NCBI GenBank assembly: GCA_041641305.1
Contig: JBEPYN010000002.1
Span: 416,001 to 480,000 of the forward strand
DNA from: Nitrososphaerota archaeon
GTDB lineage: Archaea > Thermoproteota > Nitrososphaeria_A > Caldarchaeales > Caldarchaeaceae
Length of the DNA: 64,000 nt
Direction: 5' to 3'
The notes under the pieces were generated by a model that was not told the origin of the DNA, did no database searches, and saw only the letters and a program-made list of their open reading frames with translations. The translations under genes were made by a program, and so were the position numbers. How positions within the stretch are numbered: position 1 is the stretch's first letter; every line of letters starts with the position of its first letter. Below are positions 36,481-51,248 of this stretch, one piece after another.

Positions 36481-37944
36481 ATGTGGGCTAGAGTTTTTGT
36501 GACACTGATAATCATCTTTGGCTTCGTAGGGTACGCTTGGTATGCAGCCATGTTAGCCTCTCAGAGATTGTTTGAACGTGGAATCATCAAAGAATCACCT
36601 ATGCCAACAATAGATGTCAAAACAATAACAACACAGGTGGCTCAGTACACAGGCATCGCTGTAACCCTGCTAATGATAGCCATTGTGGTAAAGAGGGTCG
36701 TTGAATCGGGTAGACTTCTGGGCGTCATTAAAGTCTCCGACCTTCAGAGGCATCTACTACTGCTTGGACCAACCGGTAGCGGCAAAACAAACACTGCTAA
36801 ACAGGCGATTGCCTTAGCCGTACGTCGTGGTGTCAGGGTAATCGTCATCGACTGGAAAGCCCTCTTCTCTCCGCCAGCGTTTTTCACGTCTCCCCAGCTC
36901 AGTTCCGCCGCATAGGGTTCGCGTGGAGCTTCTGGCGGAGCTGGGAGGGCCCAGAAAGGCGAGTACGTTAACTTCATCAAGGGAGCCTCCGTCGTCAGGA
37001 AACTCAACGTGTGGGACAACGGTGGTAGGTCGCCGAAGGAATGCGCTGTCCTCGCTGTCGAGACATTGAGAGAAATTACACGCGATATCGCAGATGTTTC
37101 ATCCGCCAGCGCAGCCCTTCTCCTGAGGGAGCTTGTAAAGCTCTACGGGAGAGGGGTGCCGAAGACATCCGACGTAGTTTCAGCTCTTGAGAAGTTCATA
37201 AACACCGCAATGGCGGAGCGGAGACTTGCCGAGGCGAATATGGCTTCTGCATTGCTTAGAAGGATGATGTGGCTCCAGATAGACGAGGAGAGGCCTGCGA
37301 AGAACATCATAGGCTCTGACAGGGTTGTTGTCTACGACTTATCAGAGCTCGGAAGCGTCTACCTGAAAACCATCTACAGCCTCAGCATCCTTTCAAAGAC
37401 CTACTACGGGGCCCTTAGACAGGGACAGTCCCAGAAACTAGAGACGCTGGTGATTGCAGAAGAGTGCCAAAACTACATACGTGGTAGGCGTTTCGACGAG
37501 CCTCCGTCGATTGGTGAGAGAATGGCTAACGAGCTGAGGGCCTACGGCGTCGGCATGGTCCTGATAAGCCCGGACCCTGTCCAGATACCCTGGCACCTCG
37601 CCAGAGACGTTGCAGCAGTAATATCCATAGGACTTCAGGCGATACCCGACAGCGTCAAGGACCTGTTGAGAACAATTGACCCCAAACAGGCGAAGAGAGT
37701 AATGATGGGTAAGAAGGCCTACGTCTATTACAACGGCAAACTGAAGACAGCCTCTCCGCCCAAGCCTCCAAAAGAAATAGAACTAAACGTTGACGTAAAA
37801 GAGGTGATTGAAGAGACTAAGCCTGAGGAGACTGTCGAGACTACTGCTACACAACCAGACAACTCTGGGGCAGAGGAGAGTGTTCAGACAATGCCGATAG
37901 AGCAGAAGGAGCCTTTGGAGGAGGCCCAGAGAGGCGTGAATTGA
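36481..37944 (+). CDS. membrane-anchored HerA/VirB4-like ATPase, spliced: join(36481..36857,36957..37944), 454 aa
   Basis: Walker A LLGPTGSGKT in exon 1; removing the BHB intron gives VIVIDWKGEY; Walker B region VIAEECQN and LRAYGVGMVLIS in exon 2. Confidence 0.85.
36858..36956 (+). other. BHB-type mRNA intron 1 (99 nt)
   Basis: Central helix CUGG/CCAG, bulges AAA/AAA, long inner stem; contains an in-frame TAG. Confidence 0.8.
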
Positions 37945-41287: not shown

Positions 41288-43088
41288 ATGGTCAGGGTAG
41301 TGGAGCTTCGGGAGGAGACTGAGCTTCTAGAAAAACTCAAGAATCGCTTTCCACACACTAGTCTACGTAGATATCAGGCCGACATCGCTAATAGGGTCTA
41401 CGAGAGCCTTTCCAACGGCTCTAGCATTCTTCTGGAGGGCCCTACGGGGCTGGGGAAGAGGCTATGAGGAGACTGTTTATGGGGGGTGGTTGGCTGGCTG
41501 GCGTCTCCGAGCCTCCTATACAGCCCCTGTATGGGCCGCGGTGAGCGCCTACGCGGAGGAGAAAGGTCTGAGGGTTCTATGGCTCACCCGGACGGCGTCC
41601 CAAGTAGCTCACATCGCCAGCGAGATAGGATGCATGCCCATCTACGGCCGCCGGCTTCTCTGTATCCATGAGACGGTTAGCAAGGTTGAGCAGAGACGGT
41701 TCAACGCGGCTTGTAGAGTTGTACGACTATCCGGACGTTGCTCATACTATCCCGGAAGGCCTAGCCAAATAAAGGCGAAGACTGTTGGAGAGATTAAAGA
41801 TGCCGGTAGGAAGTCGGTCACATGTCCCTACGAGCTTCAGCTGACATCGATGCCATACTCGACGTCGCTGGTCGCCACCCATAAACAGTTGTCTGTAGTT
41901 TCCTGGCTTTTGGCAAAATGGCGTTGGACCCGCGAGCGAACCATCTTGGTGCTCGACGAGTTCCAGAACATCTTGAAGACTGTTCTCGACCTCTCAAAAG
42001 ACGCCATAAGCCTGGCAACGCTCCACAAGGCCGCCGCAGAGGCAGCAAGGTATGGCTTCAGGGATATTTCCAGCAGTCTTTCAGAAGCTTATCAAAGATA
42101 CAAGGCGGTTGACGTTGACGAGGCTGAGGTAGAAAACCTACTGCCCAGCTTCGAAGAGCTCTTCGAGGCGGGGCAGGAGATACAGGCTAGGAAACTTGAG
42201 GAGAATGTTGTACCCGCCAGCTATGTGTTGAGCGTCGCAGACTTTAAGGCTGCTCTCGGCCAGCAGAAGCCCCTCCTAGTCAGGGAGGGTGAACGGGTTT
42301 GGCTGGAGGCGCTAGCAGACCCACGCGAGGAGCTTGAAAAGATTCTCGAAGGCTGGAGAACGGTCATAGCTATGACGGCCACGATGGATGCGGAACTCGT
42401 TGAACGCATGGCTTCAACCCAAGTGACGCTGTTGCGAGCAGGGTGGCCCTTCGACGATAATCTGAAGGCATACATTGTCAGCGGCCTTACGACGAGATAC
42501 AGGGACAGGGATGTGGAGCTCTATGAAGATGTCCGATGGCTTATAGAACAATCTCATGGAATGAGGACTCTCGTCTTCCTACCCAGCTATGAATTTGCTT
42601 CAATGATTCAGAAGAGGCTTAGCGACGCTATCGCCGAGCAACGGGGGATGACGCAGGAACAGGTGGAAGCCACGGCCGCTGAATTCGCGGAGGGTGGAAA
42701 AACGCTTTTAGCCGTCTTCGGTGGAAGGCTGGCAGAGGGCATCAACCTCCAAGCCGACTTGGTTATGCTGGTGGGCATACCATTCGCGAAACCATCACCG
42801 CGAACAAAGAAGCTCGAGGACAAGCTTGAGAATGTCTTTGGGAGCAGTGACCTTTCCCGGCTACATGGACTAGTTTTACCGGCCCTCTTTGCCGCCGTGC
42901 AGGCCGCCGGTAGGGCTGTCAGAGGCCCCAATGATAGGGCTCTGGTCCTGCTCGTCGACGACAGATACCGCCGTTTGACAAAACACTTGCCCAGATGGTT
43001 CAGAGACTTGGTCTCAGATAAGCCGGTCAAGCTCACAGATGTTCCCATTCTATTGGATGAGTGGTTGTCATGGATGAAGAGCGTTTGA
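41288..43088 (+). CDS. XPD/Rad3/DinG-family FeS helicase, spliced: join(41288..41458,41520..43088), 579 aa
   Basis: Q motif RRYQ; Walker A GPTGLGKT is rebuilt only after intron removal; FeS cysteines (LC...C...C...CPY), DEFQN, TAT, EGIN, GIPF and QAAGRAVR. Confidence 0.9.
41459..41519 (+). other. BHB-type mRNA intron 3 (61 nt) containing a kink-turn
   Basis: GGGGCUG-GGGA-AGA-GGC pairs with GCC-UCCU-AUA-CAGCCCC; causes a frameshift and contains a TGA. Confidence 0.9.
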
Positions 43089-44512: not shown

Positions 44513-44667
44513 ACACCCCCTATTTTTTCTTTCCCCGATAGGAGGCCCTTTCCGCCGCTCTCCGGCGGGAGGGGTTCCTCCTGTCGGGGAGAGGTGGACT
44601 CAGGCCTCCCGGGAAAGCCATGACATTAAGTCATGGTACCGGACCCGGCCACCGGGGTAAAGGTGGC

Positions 44668-45066
44668 ATGGACTCGTCTCCCGAGAGGCTGTTTGATGAC
44701 TCGGGAGCGCCCGCGGTTCCAAGGCCCGCCGCGGGCGACAAGTGCCAGGGCCTGAGTTCGGGGGGTGGTTCGACTTATGAGCGTCTGCTGGAGCGCTACG
44801 GCGGCTTCTTCGAGGAGCTTGGCTATGGTTGTCTCGCCAGCTTTAAGCATCTGATTGAGCAAGTGGAGGTGACTATCGATACGGCGACATCTAATGATGT
44901 CAACCTGTTTGCTAAGCTCCATGTGCTAAAGTCTGCGAGGGCCTCGGTAGAAGTATTTACGGAGTATTATAGTCGATTCCTGCCACCTACTGTCGTCAAT
45001 AACCTGCGAGCTGACCTGACATTTCTGCTTGAGCGTGCTGAGGAGGTGGTGTTGACTTTTGGCTGA
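44668..45066 (+). CDS. hypothetical helical protein (start uncertain)
   Basis: Protein-like from about 44770 (TYERLLERYGGFFEELGY...); the upstream part lies in a hairpin cassette. Confidence 0.5.
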   Translation: MDSSPERLFDDSGAPAVPRPAAGDKCQGLSSGGGSTYERLLERYGGFFEELGYGCLASFKHLIEQVEVTIDTATSNDVNLFAKLHVLKSARASVEVFTEYYSRFLPPTVVNNLRADLTFLLERAEEVVLTFG

Positions 45067-45970
45067 ATTCATAGACCCCACCATTCTGAAAGGGTGGTGG
45101 GGTTCCGAGGAATACCAGAGGCTGTTATCCTTCGAGCCGGAAAATGCAGGTGACTACTATCGGTTACCATTCGCCAAATACAACGAGCTCTTTCCGTTCA
45201 TCAAAGTCAAGATTGAGCACCCTGCAGTGATGAACCCATACTTGGCGATTTTCCTTTGGCGGCGTTACGTAAAACCAAATGATGTAATAATCGACCCTAT
45301 GGCTGGGATAGGGGGTACACCCGATATGTAGGGGCCCAGCTTTATCCCAGCCATAGCCTGCAGATTGACCAATGATAACCACTTAATCCTCAACGATATT
45401 GAGTCGACTTACGCCAGACTCTCTGAGGAGCTTCTTTCGGAGATGCTGGTCGTTACTAATCACAGCACCCTGCTGGACGTCTACAACGTAAACGCTGCCT
45501 CTCTTTATGAACTTCTTAGACCAAGAGGACTTGCTGGAGGCGTACGGAGGAGGGTTATTATTACCTCTCCTCCGTATGGCCTCCTCAGGCCCTGTGATAG
45601 CTTCAGCCCGAGGTTTGGCAGACTGACGGTAACTTCCGCCGGTAACCTTAGCGTGATAACCGGTAAACACTTTAGGGCGGCTTGGCTGGGCGTGCTGACT
45701 TCGATGTATCTCTGTCTCAACCAGTTCCATAGAAACCGTGACTTGGCTGTGATTGTCCTCAAAAACTTCAAGAATAACAATGTGGAAAAGGCTGTTGGAA
45801 AAAACCTCGTCAATTTAACGGTTGAACTCGCGGAGTTCGTTGGATTCAAACATCTCGAGACGCTGAAGTTCAAGATTTCAGGCAGCCACTTCGCCAGATA
45901 CCACGACATCAAGCAACATGTCCATGACCTCTGGCACGAATATGCGCTGGTCTTCCGCAAGGTGGTGTAG
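45059..45970 (+). CDS. amino (N4-C/N6-A) DNA methyltransferase, spliced: join(45059..45318,45340..45970), 296 aa
   Basis: HPAVM, motif I IIDPMAGIGGTF (rebuilt by splicing), NDIE, motif IV ITSPPY and HEYALVFRK. Confidence 0.85.
45319..45339 (+). other. BHB-type mRNA intron 4 (21 nt)
   Basis: 14-bp perfect exon-exon stem CUAUGGCUGGGAUA/UAUCCCAGCCAUAG plus two G-U pairs, helix GGGU/GCCC, bulges ACA/AGC; contains an in-frame TAG. Confidence 0.9.
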
Positions 45971-46910: not shown

Positions 46911-47017
46911 CCTAGGTGTTGTTTGGTGGTTGCCTGCCAGCCAACCATCCCCCTATTTTTCCCTTCTTTTTGTGATGTTTTTTGTTTATATCATGGGTGT
47001 GGGGTGTTTTCGGGGGT

Positions 47018-47460
47018 ATGGTCTCTGAGCTTGGTTATGGTGGGTTTGTTGCGGAGGTGTTGAGTGGGCTTGGTGTGGGGTTGGGTGATGAGGTTGAGGT
47101 TGTGAGAAATGGGCTGCGGCTCCGCGGGTTTGTGATTGCGCGTTACGAGTATGGGGCGCCTGATGTTCTGGTTTTGAAGCTTTCGAACGGCTACAACATA
47201 GGTGTGCGCATCGATGCCTCTACACAGATACGTAAGCTCTCCTCAGCCGTCGCGCCATCTTTCAACCCACCTCCACCCGCCCAGCCTCGGGAAAACCTGC
47301 CCCGCGTCATGATTGCCAACACAGGCGGCACCATAGCCAGCAGAATAGACTACAGGACAGGAGGAGTTAAACCCACTCTCACTGCATCGGACCTCGTCAG
47401 CATAGTTCCCGAAATCGCGGAGAAAGCAAACGTCTCAACCGAGATTCTGATGCAGGTTGT
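47018..47460 (+). pseudogene. gatD: truncated Glu-tRNA(Gln) amidotransferase subunit D (N-terminal part)
   Basis: VLKLSNGYNIGV and TGGTIASRIDYRTGGV...DL...VPEI; similarity stops at about 47458. Confidence 0.8.
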
Positions 47461-47490
47461 GAGTATGTTTATAACATCATCCAACACAGC

Positions 47491-48417
47491 GTGTCCATGG
47501 TTGTTTTCTTTGGAGCAGTCATTCCACGCTATGACGTGGATTTTAGAAAAGTTGTGGACACGGTTTTGATGTTTGAGGAGCTTGGTTTTTCCTCGCTCTG
47601 GGTAACTGACCACATGCAGCCCCGCCGCGCCTCACGCATCCTCGAGTCATGGACGCTTCTCTCAGCGCTTGCGCCTGTGACGGATGCGAGACTGGGAACG
47701 GTTGTCCTATGCTCATGCTACCGCCACCCCTCTCTTCTCGCGAAAATGGCCGCAACCCTCGACATCATCAGCAACGGACGCCTCGAGCTCGGCGTTGGAA
47801 CAGGGTCGGAGCCACAGGCCGAGGAGCTAGAGGCCCTTGGAATGGAGACATGGAAGCCCAAAGAAAGAATTCCACGTCTGCGAGAATATGTTGAGGTGCT
47901 GCGGCTGCTGCTTTCCGACGGCGACCCCGCCACCTACCAAGGCAGGTTCTACACGCTCAAAAAAGCGATGCGCAACACGCCCACGGTCCAGAAACCACAT
48001 CCACCCATATGGATAGGTGCGCGAAAAGGGAAAATGGTTAAGCTGGCGGCCGAGATAGGCGATGGCTGGAACTTCTACGGCGAAACACTGACAGAATACA
48101 GAGAGGCCGTCAAACATTTTGACGAAGAATGCGACAAGCTAGGCAGAAGACCGAGCAAAGCAATCTTCACAAACCTCCTAATCTACAAGGATGAAACGGA
48201 CAAGAGGGAGAAGATAAAGCACCTCGGCGCCTTCGAAACCGAGGAACAAGCCCTGCGCAAAACCTTTACACTCCTACACGGAACCCCTGACCAAGTCATC
48301 AAACAGGTTGAGGAGCTACAGAGTCTCGGCGTCGGACTCGTCATCCTACGAGACATGGACCCAGAAACATCAAGCATAAAAGACTTCGCCAAAGAAATCA
48401 TCCCATCCTTCAAATGA
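47491..48417 (+). CDS. LLM-class flavin/F420-dependent oxidoreductase
   Basis: GFSSLWVTDH, ESWTLLSALA, RHPSLLAKMAATLDIISNGRLELGVG and PPIWIG. Confidence 0.9.
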   Translation: MSMVVFFGAVIPRYDVDFRKVVDTVLMFEELGFSSLWVTDHMQPRRASRILESWTLLSALAPVTDARLGTVVLCSCYRHPSLLAKMAATLDIISNGRLELGVGTGSEPQAEELEALGMETWKPKERIPRLREYVEVLRLLLSDGDPATYQGRFYTLKKAMRNTPTVQKPHPPIWIGARKGKMVKLAAEIGDGWNFYGETLTEYREAVKHFDEECDKLGRRPSKAIFTNLLIYKDETDKREKIKHLGAFETEEQALRKTFTLLHGTPDQVIKQVEELQSLGVGLVILRDMDPETSSIKDFAKEIIPSFK

Positions 48418-51143: not shown

Positions 51144-51248
51144 GGGCCCGTAGCTTAGCATGGATAGAGCGCTGGCCTCCGGAGCCAGAGGTCGTGAGCG
51201 GCGGTACGGAAGTGCCGCGCCGGCAGGGTTCAAATCCCACCGGGCCCG
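51144..51248 (+). tRNA. tRNA-Arg(CCG) with a 30-nt intron (51197..51226) in the T-stem
   Basis: Acceptor GGGCCCG/CGGGCCC, anticodon stem CTGGC-CTCCGGA-GCCAG, T-arm GTG|GG-TTCAAAT-CCCAC; BHB helix GUCG/CGGC with bulges UGA/AGG; TTTAAATA box upstream. Confidence 0.95.

Follow-up and report, generated by a model that had tools for sequence, protein, structure and literature searches.

A predicted tRNA-type bulge-helix-bulge intron in the coding sequence of a methyltransferase gene of a Caldarchaeales archaeon

We report that a methyltransferase gene of a hot-spring archaeon is probably split by a 21-nt intron of the tRNA type, i.e. an intron framed by a motif of the bulge-helix-bulge (BHB) type, and that the coding sequence would be restored by splicing of the mRNA; we put the probability of this reading at roughly nine in ten. 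The gene lies in a 64,000-nt stretch of DNA (the window; C2:416001-480000) of a 1.66-Mb archaeal genome in four contigs. The closest named relatives of the methyltransferase protein are found in Candidatus Caldarchaeum and Calditenuaceae metagenome-assembled genomes (MAGs), and the host genome is that of a member of the Caldarchaeales ('Aigarchaeota'). Unless a contig is named, positions refer to the window, and the parts of the gene are all on the + strand.

The two exons were delineated from the list of open reading frames (ORFs) and from the spliced reconstruction. Exon 1 (45059 to 45318) starts with a TTG codon, in a start context common to the window and its relatives (MAEF... in the relatives), and ends ...DPMAGIGG-T(AC). 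Exon 2 (45340 to 45970) begins C|TTT ATC, includes the SPPYG motif and ends with a TAG stop codon at 45968-45970. The ORFs 45059 to 45331 and 45365 to 45970 share the same frame and only a TAG at 45329-45331, in frame with the ORF starting at 45059 and inside the predicted intron (45319 to 45339), separates them. The intron boundaries are based on the fold, the parse of the motif, the spliced reconstruction and the inserts present in relatives.

According to the minimum free energy (MFE) fold and the covariation the outer helix, h, is formed by two 16-nt arms that are both coding: the 5' arm (45297 to 45312) lies in the P-M-A-G-I-G codons and the 3' arm (45341 to 45356) in the F-I-P-A-I-A codons. 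A preliminary description of this DNA had suggested a 14-bp exon-exon stem; the 14 perfect Watson-Crick pairs are present (45297-45310 with 45343-45356), but two G-U pairs (45311/45342 and 45312/45341) bring the stem to 16 bp in length. The central 4-bp helix, H, identified in the MFE fold and by a strict BHB parse, consists of GGGU on the exon side (45313 to 45316) and GCCC on the intron side (45334-45337), and it is flanked by bulge 1, ACA (45317 to 45319), and bulge 2, AGC (45338 to 45340). Within the intron a 3-bp inner helix, h', CCC/GGG (45320-45322 with 45331-45333), closes an 8-nt loop (45323-45330). Helix H and the two bulges are those that had been described earlier and RNAfold predictions for 45297-45356 bear them out, with the MFE and centroid structures both corresponding to the strict hBHBh' form (-35.8 kcal/mol, z = -3.25). 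At 75-85°C the BHB structure is at most approximately 1 kcal/mol from the MFE, at -13 to -7 kcal/mol (ViennaRNA parameters).

The strand order of these parts, h-H-B-h' and h'-H-B-h, is that of the canonical archaeal BHB motif (PMC4090602). For cbf5, each bulge is stated to be cut after its second residue and before its third (PMC2738675). The cbf5 rule was applied to all loci; intron calls by ARAGORN on the genome had been considered as a control for the cutting rule, but these calls, several of them kilobase-sized, were unreliable and the published rule was used instead. For the window the predicted 5' cut is between 45318 and 45319 and the predicted 3' cut between 45339 and 45340. Removing 45319-45339 gives GGT AC|C TTT and eliminates the TAG, as the preliminary description had proposed, and results in one 296-aa frame that reads ...DPMAGIGGT-FIPAIACRL... 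(predicted spliced junction: ...GGGGGTAC|CTTTATCC...). Hence, in addition to the 4-bp helix, the two opposite 3-nt bulges and helices h (16 bp) and h' (3 bp), the site has in common with known BHB introns that the cutting rule yields a frame-restored product, which aligns gap-free with intron-less homologues. The predicted spliced mRNA retains an 18-bp hairpin.

Comparison with relatives carries most of the weight. Loci were taken from the encoding contigs and from related genomes, and by pattern match from metagenome and genome collections; besides the related genomes they represent NCBI assemblies of independent origin, JGI/ENA metagenomes and Logan contigs. Relatives of the protein were found by word-indexed protein search and exhaustive HMMER search. 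An insert is found at precisely the same codon in about 20 loci: 18 nt in L010, L011, L020, L030, L049, L050, L052 and L053; 19 nt in L038; 20 nt in L003/L004/L048 and also, with unrelated sequence, in L019; 21 nt in the window, L002 and L051; 22 nt in L005, L009, L035, L043, L055 and L057; 25 nt in L056; and 32 nt in L006-L008. With the same cutting rule applied, every locus parses as a strict BHB except L027 (22-nt type), where the 5' exon has an extra G and the parse fails. The insert in methyltransferase motif I that had been singled out in the window is therefore one of a series in which the BHB geometry is kept, with that one exception, while the sequence changes. The spliced junction always reads GG(T/S)-(F/L)-IP(A/P)I. 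One gapped-pattern match, L054 in a Bacillales MAG, has no BHB and was dismissed as a chance match.

For five of the seven insert lengths division by three leaves a remainder, which puts the halves of the gene in different frames at such loci, and the in-frame variants all contain TAG or TAA. Full-length loci rebuilt with the bulge-defined cuts give one frame of 283-338 aa whatever the intron length, and only these cuts restore the frame. With seven insert lengths among the relatives, production of the enzyme almost certainly requires that the mRNA first be cut and rejoined. The same lengths bear on the idea that the ribosome bridges the insert, i.e. by stop read-through or recoding, by frameshifting, or by bypassing the hairpin as in T4 gene 60. 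The window insert is in frame with a single TAG, the last exon 1 codon is followed immediately by a stable hairpin, and cbf5 introns were formerly mistaken for frameshifts (PMC2738675), all of which would suit such bridging. However, shifts of +1, +2 and 0 would be needed among the relatives (lengths 19, 20, 22, 25 and 32), the take-off and landing codons are unmatched (ACA vs AGC, ACU vs AAA), and a bypass does not require two conserved 3-nt bulges placed exactly 4 bp apart. Recoding of TAG is ruled out by the gene's own TAG terminator together with the frame changes in relatives, and we regard translational bridging in any form as extremely improbable.

Two features of the introns themselves were observed. 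Most variants (the window, L002, L003, L010, L011, L020, L030 and L056) contain R-U-G-U-A-R, despite differing inner helices, and its placement puts UAG or UAA in frame with exon 1; this could be due to selection for early termination on the unspliced mRNA, or merely to shared ancestry. The 32-nt intron (L006, L007 and L008) holds a near-copy of the 3' exon arm that is able to pair with the 5' exon arm, which hints that this intron grew by duplication of the exon arm; this alternative fold is better than the BHB at 37°C, not at 75°C.

Covariation was evaluated in an alignment of nine sequences (A2). Standard pairs occupy 97.5% of the cells, compared with 35-53% after displacement of the partners by 1-3 columns; of the 23 pairs, seven have changed on both sides and none of 500 shuffles reaches the observed covariation score. 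For the outer helix 96.5% of the cells are paired and 4/16 pairs show compensatory double changes, some of them at synonymous third positions, in keeping with the earlier suggestion that the exon codons are shaped to maintain the pairing. Helix H is paired in 100% of the cells and has one compensatory pair, the change from U-G to A-U in the L010/L011 lineage, where a synonymous change of a Gly codon is matched by a change in the intron. The inner helices are entirely different among lineages (CCC/GGG, CCUGU/ACAGG, CCCCA/UGGGG, GCU/AGC, AUA/UAU and a 9-bp helix).

The covariation pattern is also informative with respect to the level at which the structure exists. The 14-bp perfect inverted repeat is present in the DNA, where it might represent a recombination or methylase target, or it might act as a transcription attenuator; palindromes can also stem from assembly errors. 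The antisense strand folds 4-14 kcal/mol more weakly and loses the BHB, and the conserved G-U pairs would turn into C-A mismatches if a cruciform formed in the DNA, and likewise on the antisense strand. Since many of the conserved pairs are G-U, the structure is confined to the sense-strand RNA, which excludes a DNA palindrome or an antisense element. An attenuator is contradicted by the lack of a T-run after the hairpin. Finally, the same architecture is found in independent assemblies from different samples, so the preliminary description's own proviso, that the palindrome might be an assembly artefact, can be put aside. We consider that explanations of this group have almost no chance of being correct.

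The public gene calls of all close relatives are fragments, an N-terminal part of approximately 90 aa that ends just past GGT and a C-terminal part of approximately 170-200 aa. This could mean that the gene is simply broken, or that it encodes two separate polypeptides (90 aa and ~200 aa), with an incidental hairpin. In line with this, two ORFs are annotated in every relative, the protein scores under the Pfam thresholds and some of the copies in archaeon HR02 (G027; see below) look degenerate upstream. On the other hand, a pseudogene would not be expected to retain a strict BHB over seven length variants with compensatory changes, and both halves are open and conserved among lineages at 32-45% identity. 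Moreover, the conservation of the FIPAIACRL... protein sequence extends to the junction without any conserved start codon, and the gene callers start approximately 30 residues downstream. A broken or split gene is accordingly judged to be very unlikely, and we favor an intact gene interrupted by a BHB intron.

Full-length homologues lacking the insert were found only at ≤38% identity (P0012, P0052, P0063, P0033 and P0086). The seven residues that read-through would add (PDM-stop-GPS) are an insertion relative to all intron-less homologues in the alignment. Maximum-likelihood analysis places the intron-bearing sequences in two well-supported clades, which together with the intron-less P0012 constitute an unresolved trichotomy; this fits either one old intron gain or a loss in P0012. 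A comparison with intron-less alleles for loss of the flanking complementarity had been suggested, and in the one such locus compared extended complementarity is absent: in L012, the DNA encoding P0012, the best ungapped complementary run around motif I is 8, vs 17 in the window. A degenerate DNA pattern for the spliced junction had no match in the metagenome or genome collections, whereas the same pattern with a 16-31-nt gap retrieved nine true loci; hence there is no close intron-less allele on record.

Several observations weigh against the proposed intron. When the two strands of the 1.66-Mb genome were scanned for strict BHB motifs (outer helix ≥6 bp) we obtained 5057 matches vs 5012 in a reversed-sequence control, i.e. 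BHB-like shapes are not enriched genome-wide, and the motif counts are therefore unusable as evidence. No outer helix in the genome is longer than that of the methyltransferase site (16 bp), which is the sole real match at h = 16; the control also gave one. The shape alone is thus weak, suggestive evidence that proves little, and the case rests on comparison with other sequences. The loci compared are kin, and for this reason their number overstates their independence. For the 32-nt variant the MFE structure at 37°C is the alternative fold, approximately 1 kcal/mol better than the BHB. The HR02 copies keep the BHB despite a degenerate N-terminal part, and part of the conservation may reflect recent descent rather than selection. 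Taken together, conservation and covariation in the relatives nevertheless make the site far more than chance.

Other BHB-scan matches in the window were considered as introns and rejected: those at 44547-44580 and 44692-44755 are out of register between relatives, and the latter, 64 nt in length, does not link reading frames. Two further inserts, at 36858-36956 in a HerA-like ATPase gene and at 41459-41519 in an XPD-like helicase gene (both on the + strand), have a BHB parse and open junctions under the same cutting rule, and removal of the helicase insert rebuilds Walker A G-L-G-K-T. Their outer helices are 0 and 7 bp, respectively, and far shorter than the 16 bp of the methyltransferase site.

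The genome encodes the enzymes that would be expected to act on such a site. Two EndA (PF01974) genes are present at C1:295824 and C3:39058 (~182-185 aa), as is RtcB (PF01139). The presence of two EndA paralogues fits a heterotetrameric enzyme of broad specificity, and a heterotetrameric EndA has been reported for Caldiarchaeum (PMC3082918). We propose that in the pre-mRNA the motif I codons (P-M-A-G-I-G) would pair with the downstream F-I-P-A-I-A codons, and that the resulting 16-bp helix would present the canonical arrangement of 3-nt bulge, 4-bp helix and 3-nt bulge. The host tRNA-splicing endonuclease would then cut after the second base of each bulge and RtcB would ligate the exons; the junction would read GGT AC|C TTT and the G-x-G-x-T loop of the resulting 296-aa enzyme would be intact, while translation of unspliced mRNA would end at the intron TAG. 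We infer that cleavage and ligation take place in vivo, and the long exon helix is presumably kept because the mRNA lacks a tRNA scaffold at hot-spring temperature.

The rRNA and tRNA genes of the genome are intron-rich. The 16S rRNA match at G000:C2:678829-681974 (L001) spans 3146 nt and therefore carries approximately 1.6 kb of introns, and a tRNA at 51144-51248 has, near the variable/T arm, a non-canonical insert of approximately 35 nt that ARAGORN misses. The RtcB profile matches at G000:C1:535991-538729 (+) in two pieces, profile positions 1-50 and 46-426, which are approximately 1.4 kb apart in one 975-aa open frame, a pattern suggestive of an intein within the gene for the RNA ligase.

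With respect to the protein, the motifs HPAVMNP, DPMAGIGGT and TSPPYG correspond to N6/N4 amino-methyltransferase motif I, D-P-x-x-G-x-G-x-T (preceded by H-P-A-x-M-x-P), and motif IV, (S/D/N)-P-P-Y, and alignments A3 and A4 show no variation in SPPY. With 16.9 bits the window protein falls under the Pfam cut-offs of 26.7 (PF01555, N6_N4_Mtase) and 22.3 (PF01170, UPF0020). Among the intron-less homologues, P0052, P0063, P0033 and P0086 pass PF01555, with permuted order, and P0012 passes PF01170. A profile of the family matches beta-class N4C/N6A DNA methylases of solved structure, over the region of motif I. NCBIfam gave no match for the window protein and weak Trm14-like matches for P0012. AlphaFold returned a Rossmann-type model (pTM 0.78) for the read-through protein, in which residues 84-94, those added by the insert, make up a loop of low confidence that connects strand 1 with helix A of the Rossmann fold, and a Foldseek comparison with the PDB retrieved generic class I methyltransferase folds only (TM ~0.4). 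Judging from its motifs the host gene is a divergent N6/N4-type amino-methyltransferase, a relative but not a scored member of the family. DNA methylation is a plausible activity, with SPPY suggesting m4C, but RNA m2G enzymes share the same motifs. The C-terminal approximately 60 residues recur with 66% identity in a different 280-aa frame at G000:C1:516838-517032 (-), as well as in the short database proteins P0014, P0015, P0026 and P0036, and look like a shared module.

The methyltransferase gene is located downstream of genes for the HerA/TrwB-like ATPase, the XPD-like helicase and a PriL-like protein, an order that is kept in relatives. Among 75 genomes of the class only nine have the gene, and one of these holds several copies. 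To the right of the cluster a 195-aa ORF (46982-47569, +) matches only the N-terminal domain of GatD plus the initial third of its asparaginase domain, while full-length gatD is found on another contig (C1:747409-747972); this truncated gatD duplicate may mark the border of an element. The patchy distribution, the multiple copies, the conserved gene order and the flanking gatD duplicate fit a mobile element, and the gene is probably carried on an accessory, mobile element. Archaeon HR02 (G027) has at least three copies (L005/L035, L043, L027, L055-L057) with a degenerate N-terminal part and stops before VGVGDVVIDP; the extra G occurs in the 5' exon of one copy, and one carries the 25-nt intron variant. 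This multi-copy, decaying state likewise fits a mobile element. Between the PriL-like ORF and the next ORF there is a GC-rich, highly structured region (44535-44765, +), which is conserved in L002, L003 and L004; RNAalifold gave 75 pairs, of which nine are compensatory, among only three sequences, and there is no Rfam match. It may represent an element-borne non-coding RNA.

It can be asked whether the intron, with its conserved in-frame stop and 16-bp coding helix, which persists after splicing as an 18-bp hairpin, is more than a neutral passenger and instead serves as an expression gate or host-range lock of the mobile element, such that genes of the element are deliberately dependent on tRNA splicing by the host. 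We find this idea unlikely.

A BHB intron in the cbf5 pre-mRNA was reportedly described by Watanabe in 2002. In Desulfurococcales and Sulfolobales the BHB introns of cbf5, which encodes a pseudouridine synthase, are 16-44 nt in length (Yokobori 2009, PMC2738675). The methyltransferase inserts (18-32 nt) resemble these in being short coding-sequence introns with BHB cuts between the second and third bulge residues, in interrupting a catalytic or cofactor motif, in being in frame in some versions, in varying in length among lineages at a fixed site, and in having a host with a hetero-oligomeric EndA. They differ in that cbf5 is a core gene while the methyltransferase is an accessory gene of a mobile element, here in Caldarchaeales, and in that the cbf5 motif is frequently relaxed while the methyltransferase motif is strict, with an unusually long outer helix of 16 bp that is coding on both sides. 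Furthermore, splicing is confirmed for cbf5 and predicted from sequence for the methyltransferase mRNA.

Archaeal tRNA introns with the canonical hBHBh' motif were reportedly described by Marck and Grosjean in 2003. Such introns range between 11 and 129 nt, with medians of 12-25 nt (PMC4090602). The methyltransferase intron has the same geometry and size range, and presumably the same enzymes are involved. However, its site lacks a tRNA body and the codons supply the outer helix; RNA structure and protein sequence therefore constrain each other.

Outside the archaea, HAC1/XBP1 mRNAs undergo unconventional splicing in eukaryotes by IRE1 and a tRNA ligase or RtcB, with RtcB being the ligase in metazoa. 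The methyltransferase case would be similar in the protein-only, cut-and-ligate removal of a short mRNA intron that alters the protein made; it differs in that the HAC1/XBP1 nuclease is IRE1, which acts on twin stem-loops rather than a BHB, and in that HAC1/XBP1 splicing is stress-regulated. In Haloferax volcanii the HVO_1309 mRNA has a BHB intron in its 5' untranslated region (UTR) (Schwarz 2020, PMC7714728). This is likewise an mRNA substrate of the splicing endonuclease, but the intron is in the 5' UTR whereas here the reading frame is interrupted. In the literature searched, archaeal coding-region BHB splicing is reported for cbf5 only, in addition to the one Haloferax 5'-UTR case (PMC2738675; PMC7714728), and the Caldiarchaeum papers (including PMC3082918) mention only tRNA and rRNA introns.

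The methyltransferase would thus represent a second gene family with a coding BHB intron, in a different archaeal lineage and on a mobile element, and so a new example of a kind that is known but very rare. What sets it apart is the strict motif, the 16-bp helix in which both arms are codons, the natural series of seven intron lengths between 18 and 32 nt and the clear covariation. Because gene calling has divided the gene in all the public genomes examined, coding BHB introns are probably under-counted. The site would be a compact and easily testable substrate for EndA and RtcB and, with both arms of the recognition helix made up of codons, it provides a clean example of protein sequence being shaped by RNA structure.
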